From assembly GCA_019057795.1 (NCBI GenBank), contig JAHLWS010000080.1:32001-96000 (forward strand): DNA of 64,000 bases. The letters run 5' to 3'. Below the pieces are notes generated by a model. It ran no database searches and was not told the DNA's origin. It was given only the letters and a program-made list of their open reading frames with translations. The stretch is from Promethearchaeota archaeon. GTDB taxonomy: Archaea; Asgardarchaeota; Lokiarchaeia; Sigyniarchaeales; SOKP01. Of the stretch, positions 3,343 through 12,975 are shown in pieces. Position 1 is the first letter of the stretch, and every line of letters starts with the position of its first letter. Made by a program: the position numbers and the translations under genes.

Positions 3343-3711
3343 ATGACATCTTATTCATTCTTTATTAGTACAGAACCTTATAAATTTGAAGCTATTGATT
3401 CTCTAATTGAGATCTGTAAAGCTATGATTAGGAAGGGAAATTCAGTAAAGGGATTATTCTTTTACGGCTCGGGAGTATACAACTTGAAGAAAGACATTAG
3501 TAGTGGCACTTCAATCAGGAACATTCCAAAGAAGTTAGAAGAATTTTGCGGTGAAAATAAGATACCTGTTGTCGGTTGTAGTACGTGGGTTAGTCTTACA
3601 GGCTTAAACGAAAGCAATTTCATCAATGGAGCAACCGAAGAGGGATTAGGGGACTTCTCAAATTGGGCTATAGAATCAGACAAATTAATTGTTTTCGGAA
3701 CGGGGGGCTAA
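3343..3711 (+). CDS. dsrE: DsrE/TusD-like sulfurtransferase
   Basis: EPY, LFFYGSGVY, conserved Cys in VVGCS. Confidence 0.85.
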   Translation: MTSYSFFISTEPYKFEAIDSLIEICKAMIRKGNSVKGLFFYGSGVYNLKKDISSGTSIRNIPKKLEEFCGENKIPVVGCSTWVSLTGLNESNFINGATEEGLGDFSNWAIESDKLIVFGTGG

Positions 3712-3716
3712 AAACT

Positions 3717-4085
3717 ATGGTAGAATCTGTTGTTATTATAACCGATCAATCGCCAACGGGTAAGAATTCTGCTGCTGAAGCGATCCGAATTGGTTCGGGA
3801 TTTGTAGCTCTTGGAGAAATTATTAATTGCCAAATAGTTCTCACTGGAGACGCGGTTTATCTTTTAAACAAAAAAGCAAAACCTACAGCCGTTGGTATGG
3901 ACCCCGTAGATGAAACTATCGAAATGGCTGACTTATCGGACTTAGAATTATATGTTTTAGATAAATCGTTAAAAGATGCCGGTTTAACCGTTGAAGATTT
4001 AATTGAATACGAGAACTTAAAGGTCATTAGTATTGAAGCATTAATCGATTTAATCGAACAAGCAGACACCTGCTTTAGGTTTTAA
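3717..4085 (+). CDS. dsrF: DsrF/TusC-like sulfur relay protein
   Basis: SPTG..AAEAIR, LTGDAVYLL, SLKDAGL, C-terminal ADTCFRF; lies between dsrE and dsrH. Confidence 0.8.
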   Translation: MVESVVIITDQSPTGKNSAAEAIRIGSGFVALGEIINCQIVLTGDAVYLLNKKAKPTAVGMDPVDETIEMADLSDLELYVLDKSLKDAGLTVEDLIEYENLKVISIEALIDLIEQADTCFRF

Positions 4086-4100
4086 CGGGGTAATATAAAA

Positions 4101-4451
4101 ATGACGCAAGAATTGAGTGAATTTAATTTTTTATATTTATTTGGGTTTAGCGAAATTACAGGGAACCATTTAGAGCGATTATTACCAATATTGAAAGGCC
4201 AGATTAAAAAAGGAAGCCAAATTGGGCTCGTTTTGATTCACGATGGGGTGATTGGTATTAATAAGAGAGGCCGAATTACAAAGGCAATGGAAGAGCTTCT
4301 CAGCTTGAAAGTTACATTATATGCGATGATCCCCGATTTGAAAGCCCGTGGAATAGCTTTGGAGCAAACTCACGATAAAATTAAACGAATTGAATACGAC
4401 GACTTAATCGATCTTTTAGATAATAGGCTAAAAATAATATCTTGGATGTAA
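4101..4451 (+). CDS. dsrH: DsrH/TusB-like sulfur relay protein
   Basis: LIHDGV, DLKARG, IEYDDLIDL, C-terminal ISW. Confidence 0.85.
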   Translation: MTQELSEFNFLYLFGFSEITGNHLERLLPILKGQIKKGSQIGLVLIHDGVIGINKRGRITKAMEELLSLKVTLYAMIPDLKARGIALEQTHDKIKRIEYDDLIDLLDNRLKIISWM

Positions 4452-4554
4452 TTAGTCCGAGACAAGAATTAAGATTTTTTTAATAACATATCAAGAGAAA
4501 TTAGTTAAAAATTTAGTAAAAATATAAAAAAAAACAGAAAAAAAAGTGTTTAAA

Positions 4555-4971
4555 ATGGCTGAAAAAATGAGTTTTATTGTAAGTGATAAATCCTTCGAGA
4601 AATTTATGATGGCAACGATTCTTGGGACTACTGGAGCAGCAATGGACACTGAAATGAACTTTTTCTTTACTTTTTGGGGTTTAAACCTCTTAAAAAGAAA
4701 GTTTAAGCCTAAAGCAACTGGCATGCCAACCGGAATGAAAGGGATGGGTGCTATGATGTTTAGGAAAAAGTTAAAGAAATTTGGGATTGATAATCCTTGG
4801 AAATTAATCAAGGACGCTGTTGAAGACGGTAAAATGAAGCTTTATCCATGTCTAATGACTATGGATTTAATGGGTATAAAAAGAGAACAAATGTGGGACT
4901 TTGTTGAAGATCCAATTGGAGCAGCAGGTTTCATGGAAATTAGCGAAGGAGCAAATGTAATATCGTTATAG
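4555..4971 (+). CDS. DsrE2 (DrsE_2) family sulfur-transfer protein
   Basis: FFFTFWGL and YPCLMTMDLMG motifs. Confidence 0.9.
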   Translation: MAEKMSFIVSDKSFEKFMMATILGTTGAAMDTEMNFFFTFWGLNLLKRKFKPKATGMPTGMKGMGAMMFRKKLKKFGIDNPWKLIKDAVEDGKMKLYPCLMTMDLMGIKREQMWDFVEDPIGAAGFMEISEGANVISL

Positions 4972-5038: not shown

Positions 5039-5605
5039 ATGTCTGATACGAAAGAATACCACCGAGAATTTAAAACTAACGAAGATTTTGATAAAGATTA
5101 TTTTAAAAATATAGAAAGAAAGTCTAATATTTGGCAATGCATTCAATGTGGAACATGTACGGCGAGCTGTGAAAGTGGTAGATGGACCGCATTAAAAACT
5201 CGTATGATTATACGAAAAGTTGTTCTTGGAGATTTATCAGTGCTAAGCGATCCTGATATTTGGTTGTGTACTACATGCTATCAATGTTATGAGCGTTGTC
5301 CTCGCGATGTGAGGCCCACAGATGTTATTATGGAATTGAGGAACTACGCAACTAAACTGGGAAATATATCACCAAATCATAGGGCTGTTGTAGGGTACTT
5401 AACAAACTATGGACATGCGGTACCGATAAATGACGAAATAAAACAACGAAGGGTTGAATTAGGATTAGACGAACTTCCTCCCACTGCGTTTAAATTTAAA
5501 CAAGAAGGGGACGGAAAAGATTTGAAGAAATTTGAAGAACATTTGTTTGATCTTCCTCCAGTTAAGGAAATTAAGGAGGAAAAAAAGAAGGAGGAGGAGA
5601 AATAA
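5039..5605 (+). CDS. hdrC: Heterodisulfide reductase subunit C
   Basis: CIQCGTCTASC and WLCTTCYQCYERCPR 2x[4Fe-4S], GHAVPI. Confidence 0.95.
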   Translation: MSDTKEYHREFKTNEDFDKDYFKNIERKSNIWQCIQCGTCTASCESGRWTALKTRMIIRKVVLGDLSVLSDPDIWLCTTCYQCYERCPRDVRPTDVIMELRNYATKLGNISPNHRAVVGYLTNYGHAVPINDEIKQRRVELGLDELPPTAFKFKQEGDGKDLKKFEEHLFDLPPVKEIKEEKKKEEEK

Positions 5606-5608
5606 GTA

Positions 5609-6526
5609 ATGGTAAAAGAAAATACATTTGCGTTTTTTTTAGGGTGTCTCATGCCTAATAGATATCCTGCTATTGAAAAAGCTACGATGTATGTTATGGA
5701 AAAATTAGGTTATACTTTATTAGATATGGAGAGAGCTACATGTTGTCCCGCTCCAGGAGTATTTCGCTCGTTCAACAAATTTGATTGGATGGTGGCAGGT
5801 GCTAGAAACCTCTGTATAGCTGAAAAACTTGATGTGGATATTATTACTGTCTGTAATGGATGTTTTGGAACGCTCCAAGAGATTAACAAACATTTAAAAG
5901 AAAACGAAGAGCATAGGGAATTGGTAAACGAAAAACTGAAACTTCTTGGCGATTATGAGTTTAAAGGAACGATCGATGTCCGACATATTGCCGAAGTGTT
6001 AGGATATGAAGTTGGTCCTTGGGGTATTGAAGAAGTTATAATTAGAAAAGTTAACGCCCGCGCTGCGGTACATTACGGCTGTCACTTTCTAAAACCAACT
6101 AGAATTAGAGAGATTGAAAGCTCTGAGGGACCAACGATCGTAGAAGAGTTTATTGAAGCGTTAGGGGTAGAATCTGTAAGATTTAAAGAACAATTAACTT
6201 GTTGCGGCGCTGGCGGAGGGGTAAAAGCGTACTCTGGCGACGCAAGCATGACGATTTTTGGAGAAAAAATGAAAAATATTGATGAAGTAAAACCTGATTT
6301 TATATTAGATATATGTCCCTTCTGTCATCTCCAATTTGAGACGGGACAAGATTATCTCAATAAAAATAAAGATTGTAATTACGATTATCCAGTTATTCAC
6401 ATTTCGCAACTTGTTGCGTATTGTATGGGGATGGACCAAGAATTTGTTGGTCTTCAATACCAATTAATGGGCAGAGATTACATTTTTGGTCGGCAAGAAA
6501 TCAAAAAAGAAGAGGAGGTCGTGTAA
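5609..6526 (+). CDS. hdrB: Heterodisulfide reductase subunit B
   Basis: FFLGC, TCCPAPG, CNGC, HYGCH, CCGAGGG, CPFCHLQF (two CCG domains). Confidence 0.95.
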   Translation: MVKENTFAFFLGCLMPNRYPAIEKATMYVMEKLGYTLLDMERATCCPAPGVFRSFNKFDWMVAGARNLCIAEKLDVDIITVCNGCFGTLQEINKHLKENEEHRELVNEKLKLLGDYEFKGTIDVRHIAEVLGYEVGPWGIEEVIIRKVNARAAVHYGCHFLKPTRIREIESSEGPTIVEEFIEALGVESVRFKEQLTCCGAGGGVKAYSGDASMTIFGEKMKNIDEVKPDFILDICPFCHLQFETGQDYLNKNKDCNYDYPVIHISQLVAYCMGMDQEFVGLQYQLMGRDYIFGRQEIKKEEEVV

Positions 6527-8563
6527 TTGACTGTTAAAGAAGAAAAAGTAAAGCCAATAGAAGATATTGAAGAAAAAACTGTATTTCAAGATTCAAAAGA
6601 TGAAGAGCCTCGGATTGGCGTTTTCATATGCCATTGCGGGCATAATATTGCTGGAACTGTAGATGTCGCGAAAGTAGCAGAATACGCAGGAACTTTACCC
6701 AATGTGGTAAAAGCAGAGCATTACATGTTTATGTGTTCAAAGCCAGGCGTTCAGATGATTAAGGATTCCATTAAAGAATTAGGAGTTAATAGAACTGTCG
6801 TAGCAAGTTGTTCTAAAAACCAGCACGGCAGAACATTTGCGAGAGCTATCGCTGAAGAGGGTATTAATAAACACCGCCACCAACAAGTTAATATACGGGA
6901 ATATTGTAGTTGGGTTCATAAAAAAGAAGAAGAAAAAGCGACTGCAAAATCGCTTCGTTTGGTAGAAGCTGGAGTTAATCGAGCTCGAAAACTTGACGAT
7001 GTAGAAACAAGGCGAGTTACGACCACTAAAGCAGCTTTGGTTATTGGAGGGGGTATCGCGGGACTCCGATCTGCTCACGATATGGCAGAATTAGGAATAC
7101 CAGTGTTTTTAGTTGAGAAAAACTCTACGATAGGAGGTCATATGACGAGGTTGAATAAAACATTTCCAACCTTAGAGTGTCCTCAATGTTCAATATCTCC
7201 TTTAACTAACGGTGTGGCGAATCATCCATTAATTGAGCTTTATACAAATGCTCAAGTTAAAAATGTTGAGGGCTCGTTAGGAAATTTTGAAATTGAAATC
7301 GAAATTAAACCTCGGTATGTTAAAGATAATTGTACATCTTGTGGTGAGTGCTCCTTACATTGCCCAGTAGAAGTACCAAGCGAATGGGATAAAGGTATGT
7401 CTATACGGAACGCTATTTATAAAGCATATCCTCAAGCAATTCCCGCAACATTCGTACGGGACAAGAAGGCTTGTATTGAGTGTAATACATGTATTAACCT
7501 ATGTCCAGTTCAAGCGATTGATTTTTCGATGCAACCTGAAACTAAAACTGTTAAAGTTGGCTCAATTATAGTTGCTGCGGGTTTTAGCGAATACGATCCT
7601 ACGGAAATTGAACCCTACCACTATGGGCAAGAGGGATACGAAGATGTCATTACTCAATTGAAATTGGAAAGAATGTTATCACCAACTTCTTTAACAAATA
7701 GCGAAGTATTGCGACCATCTGACGGAAAATTTCCTAAAAGCATTGTAATAATTCAATGTGTAGGTAGTAGAAACGACCAAGTCGGCAATCAATATTGTAC
7801 GGGCGTTTGTTGTAAATTTGCGATAAAAAACGCTCGAATCGTAAAAGAAATGTATCCTGACACCGATGTAACGATTTGTTACATTGATATAAGAACTCCT
7901 GGATTAAATTTCGAAGAATTATATAAATCTGCTCAAGAAGTTGGGGTCAGATTCATCAGAGGGAGACCTTCAGAAATCATTAAGGATCCTATTAGTGGAG
8001 AGTTAACAGTTATTGTAGAAGACACTTTGAGCATGACGCCTTTGCAATTGTCAGCTGATTTGGTAGTATTATCAGCAGCTATGGTGCCTCCCGAAGGAAT
8101 AGGGCCGCTAGGTTCTAAACTTCACGTATTACGCTCAAAAGAAGGATTCTTAAAAGAATTTCACATAAAAATGAACCCTACATTAAGTAGCAAAGGAGGA
8201 ATATTTTTAGCAGGTGCGATCCAAGGGCCAAAAGATATTACTGAGACTGTAGCTCACGCGGGAAACGCTGCCGCTCTAGCCGCTGCACCATTGGTAAAAG
8301 GCTACATAGAAAAGGAAATGTTAGTTCCAACGATAGATTACGAATTATGTGTTAATTGTGGAATTTGCAAAACAATTTGTGCACCAGCTGCTATTGATAT
8401 TGACGAAAACGGAAGACCTACAGTCAACGAAGTAGCGTGTAAATCATGCGGCATGTGCATGGCAAGTTGCCCAACGAGTGCAATTCAATTGATTAATTTC
8501 ACAGAGGATCAACTATACGATGAAATAATCGCTGTATCAGGCGGAGGTGCCGTGTGCGAATGA
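6527..8563 (+). CDS. hdrA: Heterodisulfide reductase subunit A (FAD, electron-bifurcating type)
   Basis: GVFICHCG, NIREYCSWVH, IGGGIAG, KTFPTLEC, inserted ferredoxin, IQCVGSR..YC..VCC, C-terminal ferredoxin; TTG start. Confidence 0.96.
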   Translation: MTVKEEKVKPIEDIEEKTVFQDSKDEEPRIGVFICHCGHNIAGTVDVAKVAEYAGTLPNVVKAEHYMFMCSKPGVQMIKDSIKELGVNRTVVASCSKNQHGRTFARAIAEEGINKHRHQQVNIREYCSWVHKKEEEKATAKSLRLVEAGVNRARKLDDVETRRVTTTKAALVIGGGIAGLRSAHDMAELGIPVFLVEKNSTIGGHMTRLNKTFPTLECPQCSISPLTNGVANHPLIELYTNAQVKNVEGSLGNFEIEIEIKPRYVKDNCTSCGECSLHCPVEVPSEWDKGMSIRNAIYKAYPQAIPATFVRDKKACIECNTCINLCPVQAIDFSMQPETKTVKVGSIIVAAGFSEYDPTEIEPYHYGQEGYEDVITQLKLERMLSPTSLTNSEVLRPSDGKFPKSIVIIQCVGSRNDQVGNQYCTGVCCKFAIKNARIVKEMYPDTDVTICYIDIRTPGLNFEELYKSAQEVGVRFIRGRPSEIIKDPISGELTVIVEDTLSMTPLQLSADLVVLSAAMVPPEGIGPLGSKLHVLRSKEGFLKEFHIKMNPTLSSKGGIFLAGAIQGPKDITETVAHAGNAAALAAAPLVKGYIEKEMLVPTIDYELCVNCGICKTICAPAAIDIDENGRPTVNEVACKSCGMCMASCPTSAIQLINFTEDQLYDEIIAVSGGGAVCE

Positions 8564-9012
8564 GTGATTGTGAAACTTCTGACGAATATATTAAAGAGAG
8601 GATTCAAAACATTGTTGTTTTCATGTGTAACGAGTGCGGTCAAGGCTCAGCAAACACCGCTGGTGTCGCTCGAATGTCGTACGACGCTGCAATAAGAATA
8701 ATTAGAGTACAATGCACAGGTCAAATTGGACCCATTCAGATTACGGACGCTTTGAACAATGGAGCCGACGCAGTAGCTTGCGTAGGATGTTGTTTAGGAG
8801 CATGTCATTTCTTTAACGGAAATATTTTATCAATGCACCGAATAAAATTAATGAAAAAGCTTTTTAAGGAATTGGGATATAGCGACCAGTTTGTAAACCA
8901 ATACACGTCGCGAGCTGCTGAAGGTGAAACTTCTGTTGGCGATTTTGAAGACATTATAGATCGATTAACAACTGCAATTATACAAAAGGGGACGATAAAA
9001 GATGGATGTTAG
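8560..9012 (+). CDS. mvhD: MvhD/FlpD [2Fe-2S] adaptor subunit
   Basis: FMCNEC, IRVQCTG, GADAV..VGC..GACHF.NGN; ATGA overlap with hdrA. Confidence 0.9.
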   Translation: MSDCETSDEYIKERIQNIVVFMCNECGQGSANTAGVARMSYDAAIRIIRVQCTGQIGPIQITDALNNGADAVACVGCCLGACHFFNGNILSMHRIKLMKKLFKELGYSDQFVNQYTSRAAEGETSVGDFEDIIDRLTTAIIQKGTIKDGC

Positions 9013-10243
9013 AATTTTTCAATTTAACGGTTGTAATAAATGCTACAATGAAACATTACTACTTAAAGAAGACTCAGAATATAGTATAGAATTCGTCTCT
9101 GATCCTAAAAATTGGAAAGGAGAAAAAGTCGATATTTCGGTAATAACAGGGTATTTAATCCCAGATGACTTAAAGCATTTAAACAAAATTAAAGATAATT
9201 CAGAAAAAGTTATTGCTTATGGAAATTGCGCAGCGACCGGAGGCGTATTTGCTTTAGCAAACCAGAAAGGACACGATGTTACTCCTTTACAAAACTTAAT
9301 TGGAGACTCGCAAAATATCAATGGCTGTTTAGGAGAGATTGAAGAGTTAAAGAATACAATCGATGAGAAGGAAATACATAAACTTAAAAATTTATGCGAA
9401 GTTTGTTCCCGAAAAGCAACTTGCGAATATTTAGAAGAAATAAAGCGACAAATAGAATTAGACGATTCCAGTACTTGTTTTAACGACTTAGGTTTTCTCT
9501 GTAGTGGTTTTATCGCAAAAGAATGTAAAGAGAGATGTATTGATTACAACACTCCTTGTAGGGGCTGTAAGCCAAGCATAGACCGTTCTGGGATTCGAAT
9601 GCTCGGACTGTTCGGAACATTGGCGGGGAATGTAGAGATTGCGACTGAACATTCAGTTAAAGGAGCTACAGATAAGCTTGCAGACGAAGATGACGACTTA
9701 ACTGATGGTTTACCTGATATAGTCGGTAACTTTTTTAGGTTTACACTACCTACTTCTGGTTTACCAAAGGGTAGAATACCTTCGTCAGGAACGCTGTTAG
9801 AAGACCTATTTATTGGTAGGCTAATAGAAGAGATTCCTTTGATAACAGGACTTTTAGGCGGTAGTAAATCGATCTCATTAACGCTTAAATTCATTGAATC
9901 CTACGAAAAAGCGAATGAAATAAAAGTAAGCGAACAAGTCAAAAAATTTCGCAGTGAATTGCTAACATTAGAAGATGAATTGCTAAACGCAATTGATAAA
10001 GAAGATTCTACTAAATATAAAGAAGTCACTGAGAAAATAAGAAAAATTGCCGGGAATATGAATTTATCGAATTTGTATTTTGGTGGTTTCAAAACAAAAA
10101 TTAATGATAGCGATAATTTTGACGATTATAAAACCCATATTTTTGAAATAGTGGAAGGAACCTATAAAAATGGTTCTGTAGAATATAAAATAGATTCAGA
10201 TGGTATTTTAACAGAAATAAAAATAAAAGAGGGATTAGTATGA
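9002..10243 (+). CDS. MvhG-like Fe-S protein (hydrogenase small-subunit fold) with long C-terminal extension
   Basis: GCNKC, AYGNCAATGG, NGC, CEVC, CF..GFLCSG..C...C....PCRGC. Confidence 0.8.
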   Translation: MDVRIFQFNGCNKCYNETLLLKEDSEYSIEFVSDPKNWKGEKVDISVITGYLIPDDLKHLNKIKDNSEKVIAYGNCAATGGVFALANQKGHDVTPLQNLIGDSQNINGCLGEIEELKNTIDEKEIHKLKNLCEVCSRKATCEYLEEIKRQIELDDSSTCFNDLGFLCSGFIAKECKERCIDYNTPCRGCKPSIDRSGIRMLGLFGTLAGNVEIATEHSVKGATDKLADEDDDLTDGLPDIVGNFFRFTLPTSGLPKGRIPSSGTLLEDLFIGRLIEEIPLITGLLGGSKSISLTLKFIESYEKANEIKVSEQVKKFRSELLTLEDELLNAIDKEDSTKYKEVTEKIRKIAGNMNLSNLYFGGFKTKINDSDNFDDYKTHIFEIVEGTYKNGSVEYKIDSDGILTEIKIKEGLV

Positions 10244-12705
10244 GCTTTGAACTATTACAAAAAGAAATTATTGACGCAGGTTTATGCCAAGGTTGTGGTT
10301 TGTGTGTAGGTTATTGCAAGCACGTAGAAATGGAAACACTGCGTCCAGTATTAAAAGATTATTGTATTTTAGAAAGAGAGGGACAAAAATGCGGTAAATG
10401 CTACGAGAATTGTCCTCAAGTAATACAGAAAAAATTCAAAGAAATGCAACCAAAAGGAATGTATTCCTTAAGAAGCACAGACTCCGAAATTTTAGCAAGG
10501 GCTTCAAGTGGTGGATTTGTAACCACAATCGCCAGGCATCTTTTAAAAGAAAAAGAACTGTCTGAAATCGTCATGGTACAAAATATTAACGACTTACCAA
10601 AAGCAAGTATAGTAACAGACCCAGATGATGTTGTTCAAAAAGCTGGGGTTGTATACGGACGATCAGGCGTTTTACAAAAATTAGTGGAGGTAACAGGAGA
10701 AAATTTCGAGCCTTTAGGAATTATTGGAGTTCCCTGCGAAATTAGAGGCGCTGCTGAACTTGAAGAGGAAATGAAAAGAGAAATCCTCAAAATGGGGTTA
10801 TTTTGTAATTCAAGTATTCGAACTGAATATACTGATAGAGGATTAATTCAATCACCGTGCTCTGGTGGATGTCCTTCAGGAGTTGATGCTCGAGGTTATA
10901 TTGCCTTAATCCGTGATGGACATTATTTTGAAGCTGTGGATTTAATACGTGAAAAGAATCCTTTACCCTCTATTTGCGGAAGAATCTGTACGCACGAATG
11001 TGAGCATGGATGCTCATTAATAGGATCAGATACCCCCGTTGCTATTCGAGAATTAAAGAAATTTGTTACCGAATATGAAATTGAACATGGTAAAGCTATA
11101 AGTGCTAAAGACGGCAAAAAACTAGGAAAGAAAGTTGCAATCATAGGTTCTGGACCAGCAGGTTTAACAGCGGGCTATTTTCTATCCCTTAAAGGGTATT
11201 CGCCCACTATTTTCGAAAAAACGGATCAAACAGGTGGAATGTTAAGATTTGGAGTACCTCAATTCAGATTACCTAATTACATACTCGATTACGATGTAGA
11301 GACTATTAAAAATGTTGGAGTGGAAATAGAATTTAACAAACCGTTAGGTCCTAATATGACTATTGAAGATTTAAAAAAAAATGGCTTTGAAGCGATTTTT
11401 ATCGCAACAGGCCAATATAAACCTCGTACATTACATCTTGAAGGTGAGGACCTACCAAATGTATTTGTTGCTATTAATTTCCTTATCGATAGGAAATATC
11501 GCGAATGGACAAAATTAGAAGAATTTAAGGGTAAAACAATTGGTATTATAGGTGGAGGTCCCGTAGCCGTCGATGTAGCTCAAACAGCTCTGAGATTGGG
11601 CGCTGAAAAAGTACACCTTGTAGATATTATGTCTGAAAAAGATCTTGAACTTACATTGAGAGAGATTCCAGATGAAGAATATAAATACATGGAATACCAT
11701 TTTGGAACATCAACCTCTAAAATAACCAAAGGAAAAGGCGATGGATTGATATTAAATAGTCACAAAATTGAATGGGGAGAACCTGACGATACTGGCAGAC
11801 GCCCGCTAAATAAAGTTGAAGGCTCTGATTACGAAATTGCAATCGATTCTATAGTTATTGCGGTTGGACAAACAGTGGATTTCAATTTAATTGATATAGC
11901 TACAAATAACAAACTCAAAAAAGAACGGAACAAGATCGATGTCAATCCTATAACATTTGAAACTAATATTCCAGGTGTTTTTGCTGGCGGGGATATTATC
12001 TCGAACTCAAAAGCCGTTGCTATCGCAGCAATTGCTCACGGAAAAGAAGCTGCAACCTCGATAGACCGTTATTTAAAAGGACAAGATCTTACAACTGGTC
12101 GTTTTAAAGAAGATAGAATGTTTTTCGCTGGACAAAAGAAACCGCCAAAAGACTTTTCTTTAAAACCAGAATCATTAGAAGAAGCTACAGAGAATATTGA
12201 ATGGAACTTTGATGAAATCGATTCGATGTTTAACGAAGACATGGCGTTAGCGGAAGCGAAACGTTGCTTAAGCTGTAACCACTACTGTTTACATTGTCAA
12301 GATTTTCCTGCGATCTATTCGGACTTTACAGCCGGCGAAGTAGGCTCTGAAAAAGGATTTACTACGGTTGTAGCATGGACGGATAGAGGAAAAGAAATTA
12401 TTGAAAACTCAATTAAAAAAGGTTTGTTTGAAGTAGGAAGCGTTAACGAGGAAGAATTAAAGGAAGCTATCAATCTGAAGTCAAAAAGAGAATTAAAAAT
12501 CCTAAATAAAACGCCCAGACAAGAAGTCTTAAATTATATCGTACGCTTAGGACCAGCCACTATTAGTAAAATCGCTGGAATTTTGGATTTAGGAGCGAAA
12601 AAGGTTCGATACGAAGCCTTAAGGTTAGTTCAATTAAACCAGATTGAGATGAAAGTTGAGCCTGGTATGGACGAGCCAATTTTTTCACCTATCTGTGAAG
12701 ATTAA
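10240..12705 (+). CDS. Ferredoxin-FrhB/FdhB protein with an inserted GltD/SudA-like flavoprotein module and C-terminal wHTH
   Basis: N-terminal ferredoxin; SSGGFVT and GVPCEI..GLFC (FrhB); SPC..CP, GRICTHECE.GC, IGSGPAG, GGGPVA, GVFAGGD, EAKRCLSC (GltD); then C..C.DF...SD...G.VGS..GFTTV..TDRG (FrhB C-terminus resumes); HTH tail. Confidence 0.85.
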   Translation: MSFELLQKEIIDAGLCQGCGLCVGYCKHVEMETLRPVLKDYCILEREGQKCGKCYENCPQVIQKKFKEMQPKGMYSLRSTDSEILARASSGGFVTTIARHLLKEKELSEIVMVQNINDLPKASIVTDPDDVVQKAGVVYGRSGVLQKLVEVTGENFEPLGIIGVPCEIRGAAELEEEMKREILKMGLFCNSSIRTEYTDRGLIQSPCSGGCPSGVDARGYIALIRDGHYFEAVDLIREKNPLPSICGRICTHECEHGCSLIGSDTPVAIRELKKFVTEYEIEHGKAISAKDGKKLGKKVAIIGSGPAGLTAGYFLSLKGYSPTIFEKTDQTGGMLRFGVPQFRLPNYILDYDVETIKNVGVEIEFNKPLGPNMTIEDLKKNGFEAIFIATGQYKPRTLHLEGEDLPNVFVAINFLIDRKYREWTKLEEFKGKTIGIIGGGPVAVDVAQTALRLGAEKVHLVDIMSEKDLELTLREIPDEEYKYMEYHFGTSTSKITKGKGDGLILNSHKIEWGEPDDTGRRPLNKVEGSDYEIAIDSIVIAVGQTVDFNLIDIATNNKLKKERNKIDVNPITFETNIPGVFAGGDIISNSKAVAIAAIAHGKEAATSIDRYLKGQDLTTGRFKEDRMFFAGQKKPPKDFSLKPESLEEATENIEWNFDEIDSMFNEDMALAEAKRCLSCNHYCLHCQDFPAIYSDFTAGEVGSEKGFTTVVAWTDRGKEIIENSIKKGLFEVGSVNEEELKEAINLKSKRELKILNKTPRQEVLNYIVRLGPATISKIAGILDLGAKKVRYEALRLVQLNQIEMKVEPGMDEPIFSPICED

Positions 12706-12738: not shown

Positions 12739-12975
12739 ATGAAATTTGATCAAGAATTAAATGTGTGTGGTTTAGTTTGTCCCGTACCTGCGTTGAAAAC
12801 CAAAAAGCAACTCATGAAGATGCGACCCGGTACCGTATTAAAGGTGATAACTGACTATAGACCCGCAAGTGAGTCAGTTCCACGTGATTTAGCAAAGACT
12901 AAACATAAACATTTAGGGACCGATTTTCTCGAAGATGACGAGCAATGGTTAATGTATTTTGAGTCAGTAAAATAA
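12739..12975 (+). CDS. tusA: TusA/SirA family sulfur carrier (second copy)
   Basis: GLVCPVP, LKVITD. Confidence 0.9.
   Translation: MKFDQELNVCGLVCPVPALKTKKQLMKMRPGTVLKVITDYRPASESVPRDLAKTKHKHLGTDFLEDDEQWLMYFESVK

Follow-up and report, generated by a model that had tools for sequence, protein, structure and literature searches.

A permuted GltD/NfnB-type cassette nested in an FrhB-type subunit of an Asgard archaeal Hdr operon

In the Elp-Hdr and Fdh-Hdr complexes of methanogens (8rvu, 7bkb; PMC12350162), an FrhB/FdhB-type flavo-FeS subunit (ElpB or FdhB) is encoded together with mvhD and hdrABC. Within Elp-Hdr, a truncated, inactive FdhA homologue serves as the scaffold, the FdhB-like ElpB oxidises F420H2 at its flavin adenine dinucleotide (FAD) and possesses no pyridine-nucleotide module, and the MvhD-like ElpC provides the link to HdrA (PMC12350162). 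Here, we describe an 821-aa protein in which a GltD/NfnB-type module is nested inside an FrhB-type domain. It is encoded by the open reading frame at 10240-12705 (+) of a 64,000-nucleotide stretch of a Promethearchaeota archaeon genome (GCA_019057795.1, contig JAHLWS010000080.1, positions 32,001 to 96,000; hereafter the window), within an operon of the order DsrE, DsrH, DsrE2, HdrC, HdrB, HdrA, MvhD, mvhG', the 821-aa gene and tusA. By its sequence and by analogy with the known complexes, the protein is probably, albeit with considerable reserve, the pyridine-nucleotide entry (or exit) subunit of a hydrogenase-less, Asgard-specific Hdr complex. The function of soluble Hdr complexes in non-methanogenic archaea has yet to be settled, and the redox metabolism of Asgard archaea has a central place in the syntrophy models of eukaryote origins.

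The Asgard locus and Elp-Hdr both appear to employ a degenerate relative of a catalytic subunit as a scaffold, ElpA in the latter and MvhG' without MvhA in the former. Compared to ElpB, the 821-aa protein has a GltD cassette of ~480 residues in place of the lid, an added winged helix, an Asgard host and DsrE/DsrH/TusA genes in its operon. The best matches of the insert were StnC and NfnA of the bifurcating enzymes StnABC and NfnABC (8oh5, 9bov, 9n5u/9n5v), with Z-scores of 41-42 and E-values of 1e-79 to 1e-91. Both share the permuted order, with 'NF.E...EA.RCL.C' after the flavin domains. In contrast to the Asgard protein, their cassette lies towards the N-terminus of the chain, where it follows another domain and starts near residue 96-104, is succeeded by large domains and is not nested in FrhB, and YRR stands at the position of Asp462. 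A GltD/NfnB NAD(P)H module inside an Fe-S domain of an Hdr-complex subunit is also found in type III HdrA and in HdrA9-11 of ANME-1, where the insert has been proposed to act as a pyridine-nucleotide port (PMC12054007, PMC9012536). However, the host there is the ferredoxin domain of HdrA itself, rather than an FrhB-type partner subunit, and these proteins were reported from ANME-1 and Bathyarchaeota, not from Asgard archaea (PMC12054007, PMC9012536). The best sequence matches of the FrhB flanks were FwdI (8rja; E 7e-25) and ACDS zeta (8riu; E 5e-20) of Ca. Ethanoperedens, in which an N-terminal 2x[4Fe-4S] ferredoxin precedes an FrhB-type domain that docks onto a larger redox complex (PMC11493965). 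Unlike the Asgard protein, they have ~80 residues between the motifs flanking the lid position, and F420 reduction has been demonstrated by assay (PMC11493965). Neither of them carries a GltD module or a winged helix. The FlxABCD-HdrABC complex of sulfate reducers likewise depends on NADH and contains an MvhD-like connector, and ferredoxin and the disulfide of a sulfur carrier are its presumed acceptors. FlxA, which reacts with NADH, is of another fold family, and no FrhB domain takes part.

The individual parts are known, namely FrhB-type Hdr donors, the permuted GltD cassette and GltD within HdrA (PMC9012536, PMC12054007). No description of the nested protein was found in the searchable literature, a search that left subscription papers and supplements outside its reach and that did return GltD-in-HdrA proteins and clusters of FrhB with Hdr. 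Likewise, no curated family model spans the whole protein, as the best NCBIfam match, PRK12771, scored 399 bits, below its 516-bit cut-off. The databases list the nested protein as 'FAD-dependent oxidoreductase'.

Architecture of the nested subunit

The 821-aa protein comprises, in order, a 2x[4Fe-4S] ferredoxin, the first part of an FrhB domain, a GltD/NfnB module, the second part of the FrhB domain and a winged helix. The Pfam search matched Fer4 (aa 10-26), FrhB_FdhB_N (aa 74-145; E 2.6e-13), Fer4_20 (aa 205-284; E 1.6e-24) and Pyr_redox_2 (aa 297-601; E 3e-25), whereas FrhB_FdhB_C was split into two stretches (E 1.4e-16). In the own-genome profile search, positions 4-50 of the latter profile fell on aa 159-202 and positions 79-149 on aa 665-737. 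A weak match to the HVO_A0114 winged helix was also found (aa 741-810). The original prediction, made from the sequence alone, had placed a GltD-like module inside FrhB, after the GLFC motif, and the split profile together with the motifs themselves confirmed this arrangement.

All features lie on the + strand. The N-terminal ferredoxin-like domain (aa 1-65; 10240-10434) aligns with the ferredoxin domains of FwdI (8rja), ACDS zeta (8riu) and Fsr (7np8), and its eight cysteines (C16, C19, C22, C26, C42, C51, C54, C58), enough for two [4Fe-4S] clusters, were invariant among the 45 relatives in which conservation was assessed. FrhB part 1 (aa 66-192; 10435-10815) contains SSGGFVTT, Y139, VPC166E and GLFC189, which include cluster ligands 1 and 2. 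The cassette begins with an Fe-S domain (aa 203-284; 10846-11091) that holds C207, C211, C246, C250, C254 and C258, followed by the FAD and NAD(P)H Rossmann domains (aa 297-615; 11128-12084), in which GSGPAG (303-308), GGGPVA (438-443) and FAGGD (581-585) were invariant. The end of strand beta-2 (VHLVDIMS, aa 458-465; 11611-11634) places D462 at the YRR site of NADPH enzymes. A return linker from the flavin domains to the Fe-S domain (aa 616-654; 12085-12201) is collinear with StnC and NfnA of NfnABC and leads to the closing segment of the cassette (NFDEID...EAKRC676LSC679, aa 655-680; 12202-12279). FrhB part 2 (aa 681-750; 12280-12489) contains C683-x2-C686-QDF with ligands 3 and 4, SDFTAGEVGS and FTTVVAW713T, and matched residues 192-256 of FrhB 3zfs_C by phmmer. 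GLFC (C189), EAKRCLSC (C676, C679), C683-x2-C686-QDF and VHLVDIMSE (D462) were invariant or nearly so.

An AlphaFold2 model of the whole protein, based on 93 aligned sequences, had a mean predicted local distance difference test score (pLDDT) of 80.6. The score was mostly high for both FrhB flanks, the GltD module and the tail, and low for the N-terminal ferredoxin domain (45-64) and the 620-665 linker. The model was compared with 48,161 solved chains using VIA-align. FrhB 9r51_B superposed across the insert (Z 23.9, root-mean-square deviation 2.5 A, 207 residues), with model residues 66..752 lying on chain residues 2..268. FwdI 8rja_K (Z 22.3), ElpB 8rvu_E (Z 22.2; 2.4 A over 200 residues) and ACDS zeta 8riu_E (Z 20.9) also matched as single bodies spanning the insert. 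In the predicted model, the two flanks therefore form a single FrhB domain, with Z-scores of 20.9-23.9. The cassette itself matched NfnA of NfnABC (9n5v_A, Z 42.1), StnC (8oh5_C, Z 41.2) and NfnB (4ylf_B, Z 35.5), at 33-37% identity; the scores against NfnB, dihydropyrimidine dehydrogenase (DPD) and GltD were 31.6-35.5. A Foldseek search with the whole model returned GltD-type matches alone, and the resemblance to FrhB came out by VIA-align.

Four cysteines of M. marburgensis FrhB (Cys104, 134, 192 and 195) ligate the [4Fe-4S] cluster, and the small sheet between Cys134 and Cys192 bears the sole conserved turn, 163-IGKGK, close to the F420 ring (PMC3591093). The counterpart stretch of Fsr is a flexible 'lid' (residues 204-253; PMC10229431). 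In the 821-aa protein, C166, C189, C683 and C686 align with these four cysteines and were invariant, and the GltD cassette occupies the space between ligands 2 and 3, in place of the lid. Neither the lid nor an IGKGK-type turn, which mark the FrhB/FdhB family, is present in the protein. The canonical FrhB paralogs of the same genome that we compared retain a lid of 57-62 residues, most of them with a DI(S/N)KG(K/R)F-type turn. The Arg of the 'x-R-T' motif, found in six canonical paralogs and one divergent paralog, is replaced by Trp713 in the 821-aa protein and by Leu in the Thor forms described below; no role for this Arg was found in the FrhB paper (PMC3591093). Because the insert replaces the Cys2-Cys3 lid with its IGKGK turn, the canonical F420 channel of the FrhB part is, as judged from the sequence, not intact. 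The FrhB flavin is probably still bound, since the GG-x-VT helix start (SSGGFVTT) and the flavin-loop Tyr (Y139) are retained; SD..G.VGS is retained as well, and the Asp of the (Q/T)DGG-x-V-T helix start and the Lys of the Lys-Tyr loop are exchanged for Ser and Val, respectively. The genome encodes another lid-less family member, a distant FrhB-like protein of 317 aa (L008:856-1809 (+), contig C82), which has 7 residues between ligands 2 and 3 and no GG-x-VT motif.

By the order of its motifs, the inserted cassette is circularly permuted. In canonical NfnB/GltD, 'NF.E...EA.RCL.C' directly precedes 'PC...CP'. The order is reversed in the 821-aa protein, as 'PC207SGGC211P' opens the insert and 'NFDEID...EAKRC676LSC679' closes it, the latter being homologous to the N-terminus of the canonical proteins. 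Correspondingly, residues 45-462 of NfnB (4ylf_B) align with aa 205-615, and residues 9-43 with ~aa 646-680. P. furiosus NfnI shows the same pattern, its residues 22-45 falling on the closing segment; the short-piece alignments of NfnB and NfnI to this segment had weak per-domain E-values. The Fer4_20 profile is broken likewise, with positions 29-112 at aa 204-284 and positions 4-33 at aa 656-684. The six cysteines of the first part, together with C676 and C679, make eight ligands for two clusters, and all were invariant. The last cassette ligand, C679, lies four residues before the next FrhB ligand, C683, and close electronic contact between the outer cassette cluster and the FrhB cluster is therefore very likely. 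With both of its ends at an Fe-S cluster, such a cassette lends itself to insertion, and this family offers a clean natural example of how a permuted redox cassette can be placed in different host domains and later lost again. The hosts include FrhB in the 821-aa protein, HdrA in ANME-1, and HdrC-HdrB or NuoEF-type proteins in the same genome.

The latter proteins were observed on other contigs. In a 916-aa protein (L078:7531-10281 (-), contig C87), a permuted GltD stands between an HdrC-like dicluster domain and a pair of HdrB-type CCG domains. Its cassette is of the YRR type and is 41% identical to the nested one; P0126, the best match outside the nested-protein family, is of this HdrC-GltD-HdrB kind. 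A 1031-aa NuoE/NuoF-like protein (L079:330-3422 (+), contig C38) carries a permuted GltD that ends with 'EAIRCLRC'. Finally, a 913-aa protein (L078:992-3733 (-), contig C87) joins Fer4, a lid-intact FrhB and a canonical-order GltD of the YRR type in tandem. The gene for a 293-aa NfnA/PyrK-like Fe-S protein adjoins that of this tandem fusion, which looks like an F420-linked Nfn-type enzyme.

Distribution and history of the nested family

The best 120 full-length relatives were 817-825 aa long and mostly 71-96% identical to the 821-aa protein, and all those with named labels came from Asgard archaea (Loki/Promethearchaeota, Thor, Heimdall, Hod, Hermod and Odin). Identity exceeded 70% over 820 residues in most relatives, whereas both cultured strains diverge more (~55%). 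Only two further full-length cluster representatives were found among 1.84 billion representatives clustered at 50% identity. At one genome per species, the family amounted to 66 loci, including those of Promethearchaeum syntrophicum MK-D1 and Ca. Lokiarchaeum ossiferum, and all loci with taxon-bearing titles were Asgard. The nested-protein family was thus found only in Asgard genomes.

Two further variants of the subunit were identified. The Thor-type forms (345 aa) have no insert and only 17 residues between ligands 2 and 3. The short forms (366-399 aa) are 61-66% identical to both flanks and retain 'RC-GCTLLGE..P.AI.ELK', the end of Fer4_20, and 'F.EIE......E.K.C.SC', from the closing segment. 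In a tree of the flanks, rooted by assumption on the Thor forms, the short forms made up one clade (SH-aLRT 96) inside the long forms. The likely order of events, as read from these sequences, is a lid-less FrhB (FrhB'), then insertion of the cassette, then a secondary internal deletion. The alternative that the short forms are ancestral was rejected, as they constitute a single clade nested in the long forms and bear pieces of Fer4_20. A search of the short forms for cassette remnants, using a hidden Markov model of non-family GltD, reached no more than 12.5 bits for the matching domain (3.7 bits for the best shuffled control), at the C-terminal junction only; the argument for deletion is based mainly on the direct similarity to the long forms and on the tree. 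The three natural variants of one operon (no insert, insert, insert deleted) are ready-made controls. At locus L055 (Promethearchaeum sp. CSMAG_2474, ~5306-10546), two winged-helix tails of the family occur on the same strand with ~2.8 kb between them, pointing to a tandem pair of paralogous genes.

Cofactor preference and the proposed donor role

According to an established rule, an acidic residue that closes strand beta-2 of a Rossmann fold bonds with the hydroxyls of the ribose and keeps off the 2'-phosphate, which predicts NAD(H), and YRR forms the 2'-phosphate site of NADPH enzymes. The observation that beta-2 of the cassette ends in VHLVDIM rather than in YRR had been made in the original prediction, and the comparison with relatives bore it out: Asp or Glu occupied the beta-2 end in 120 of 122 full-length relatives, with L-V-D462-I-M in the 821-aa protein, IDIQ in MK-D1 and VEIR in L. 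ossiferum. YRR was retained in one deep clade (P0122, L057), in the near relative P0126, in the solved NADPH-type relatives and in two other GltD modules of the same genome, where the comparison covered the modules with a readable motif. Because Asp462 replaces YRR, the nested cassette would prefer NADH over NADPH.

According to the proposed mechanism, a circularly permuted GltD/NfnB cassette (FAD, an NAD(P)H site and two [4Fe-4S] clusters) was inserted between FrhB ligands 2 and 3, at the expense of the lid that normally shapes the F420 channel. A hydride from NADH would be delivered to the cassette FAD, and the electrons would pass through the two cassette clusters, the outer of which is closed by C676/C679, near the FrhB ligands C683/C686. 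They would then reach the FrhB cluster and the two N-terminal ferredoxin clusters, and proceed via MvhG'/MvhD to the bifurcating flavin of HdrA. The DsrE/TusA carriers would present a disulfide or persulfide to HdrBC for reduction, and the low-potential electron would go to ferredoxin; flow in the opposite (confurcating) sense is just as possible. A role as donor arm is suggested by the likeness to Mvh-Hdr, Fdh-Hdr and especially Elp-Hdr, and the GltD/NfnB modules inserted into HdrA provide a precedent (PMC9012536, PMC12054007). For another Asgard culture, a preprint proposed Hdr-dependent reduction of TusA- and DsrE-bound persulfides with a hydrogenase as the donor (10.1101/2025.07.22.663070). 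The reaction open to testing in the present case is an NADH-linked bifurcation or confurcation between ferredoxin and carrier-bound sulfur species, without a hydrogenase.

Several observations weigh against an NADH-entry role. The insert-less Thor and insert-deleted 366-399-aa variants occupy the same operon. The complex therefore can apparently function with no NAD(P)H module, implying a donor site elsewhere or a different role of the FrhB part. In these variants, either a hydride donor still reaches the flavin of the lid-less FrhB' or the complexes obtain electrons by another route. The preference for NADH stands on one sequence rule. The use of F420 also has to be reckoned with, because the genome makes F420, as indicated by cofH with a cofG-like neighbour, cofD and cofE. 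Furthermore, no CoM-S-S-CoB is expected in Asgard archaea.

The original prediction had proposed a dual F420H2/NADH donor or an F420:NAD transhydrogenase that feeds Hdr. The last element fits the context of a conserved hdrCBA-mvhD operon, and Asp462 favours the NADH side, whereas the F420 side is weakened by the loss of the lid. The accompanying caveat that the insert may disable F420 binding has become the stronger reading, since it is the lid with the 163-IGKGK turn that was replaced. If the FrhB flavin did bind F420(H2), the FrhB cluster would be a three-way junction between F420, NAD(H) and the Hdr wire, an arrangement that would agree with the largely retained flavin motifs (GG-x-VT, Y139, SD..G.VGS), with the need of the insert-less and insert-deleted variants for some donor site, with the capacity of the genome to make F420 and its seven canonical FrhB paralogs, and with the use of F420H2 by Fdh-Hdr and Elp-Hdr through an FdhB-type subunit (PMC12350162). 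We regard it as rather unlikely, given that the whole Cys2-Cys3 lid with the IGKGK turn is missing in the long, short and Thor forms alike, that the canonical paralogs compared keep theirs, mostly with the turn, and that the 'x-R-T' Arg is exchanged for Trp or Leu. If the cassette FAD bifurcated, as the flavin of NfnB and StnC does, by splitting NAD(P)H electrons between the cassette clusters and a second acceptor such as the FrhB flavin, the complex would have a second bifurcation site. Among solved structures, the cassette is closest to flavin modules from bifurcating enzymes (NfnABC, StnABC and NfnAB), and the HdrA-NfnB fusions of ANME-1 were proposed to hold two such sites (PMC9012536). 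However, no cofactor is known to lie on the far side of the cassette flavin, and all eight cluster ligands of the cassette are cysteines. NfnB and DPD have one Glu/Gln cluster ligand, and the same fold is non-bifurcating in GltD and in DPD. We regard cassette bifurcation as very unlikely. A genuine three-way junction at the FrhB cluster, by which one subunit couples NADH, F420H2 and the bifurcating flavin of Hdr, or else bifurcation by the cassette flavin itself, is, taken together, quite unlikely; were this so, Asgard archaea, among them the cultured MK-D1 and L. ossiferum, would possess a hydrogenase-free, doubly bifurcating Hdr machinery connecting the pyridine-nucleotide and deazaflavin pools with ferredoxin and the TusA/DsrE persulfide relay.

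The C-terminal domain (aa 757-821; 12508-12702), for which a wHTH-like fold had been expected, was modelled as a separate tail (aa 752-821). The predicted structure had a pLDDT of 92.3 and the order H-H-H-E-E, and the top 50 VIA-align matches were all winged helices (Z 8.9-10.6), which supports that expectation. The matches spanned DNA binders as well as protein-protein modules (ESCRT-II, RPC62, SelB), and Foldseek gave template-modelling (TM) scores of 0.7-0.79 to AspA, MarR, ArsR and Z-alpha domains. The Pfam wHTH matches in the tail were sub-threshold, with HVO_A0114 in 25 of 36 relatives. Because the tail is present in every variant of the Hdr subunit (long, short and Thor), it is most likely a docking module, rather than a regulatory one, and an old part of the subunit. 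The original prediction had also considered redox-linked DNA binding by this domain. A redox-sensing DNA-binding protein, in which the winged helix binds DNA and the flavo-FeS body is the sensor, would account for the confident fold, for the many transcription factors among the closest structural matches and for the label 'predicted transcriptional regulator' that annotators of the JGI gave to some relatives. Such a function is highly improbable, as basic and acidic residues are about equally frequent in the tail (~nine of each), leaving it without a net positive charge, as its wing is acidic (MDEP), as all three variants of the operon-closing Hdr subunit conserve it, and as its fold also serves in protein-protein contacts, for instance in the three modules named above. 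In addition, the ATG of the gene and the stop codon (TGA) of mvhG' share 4 nt (ATGA), which suggests co-translation.

Operon context and genome background

In the window, the Hdr operon is bracketed by sulfur-carrier genes. Upstream, DsrE-like, DsrH-like and DsrE2-like genes (3663-4971, +; Pfam DsrE, DsrH and DrsE_2) precede hdrC, hdrB, hdrA and mvhD (5039-9012, +), which were assigned by NCBIfam TIGR03290 and TIGR03288, both above their cut-offs, by the HdrA2 model (736 bits) and by Pfam FlpD. The next gene, mvhG' (9002-10243, +), encodes a 413-aa hydrogenase-small-subunit-like protein with Pfam Oxidored_q6 at its N-terminus, a weak VhuG match and a long extra C-terminal part. Related proteins of 411-420 aa are encoded at the equivalent position of the operon in the long, short and Thor types. 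A [NiFe] large-subunit gene was not found among the genes of the operon, and the large-subunit matches of the genome lay on other contigs. Downstream, tusA (78 aa; 12739-12975, +; Pfam TusA E 1.7e-18) starts 33 nt past the stop codon of the 821-aa gene and is preceded by a purine-rich stretch (aaagaggt).

The arrangement was conserved across the family. A TusA-like open reading frame was present downstream in 55 of 59 related loci, and the operon of MK-D1 agrees in the order and sizes of its genes. A Hodarchaeota-labelled metagenome-assembled genome (MAG) has the short form in the same operon, and a Thor-type genome likewise has its insert-less form there. In all three variants, the gene closes a dsrE/H-hdrCBA-mvhD-mvhG' operon, with tusA after it. 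In the Hodarchaeota-labelled MAG, the short-form subunit was followed by a second pair of HdrC-like (171 aa) and HdrB-like (290 aa, CCG) genes (L072:11530-12936 (+)).

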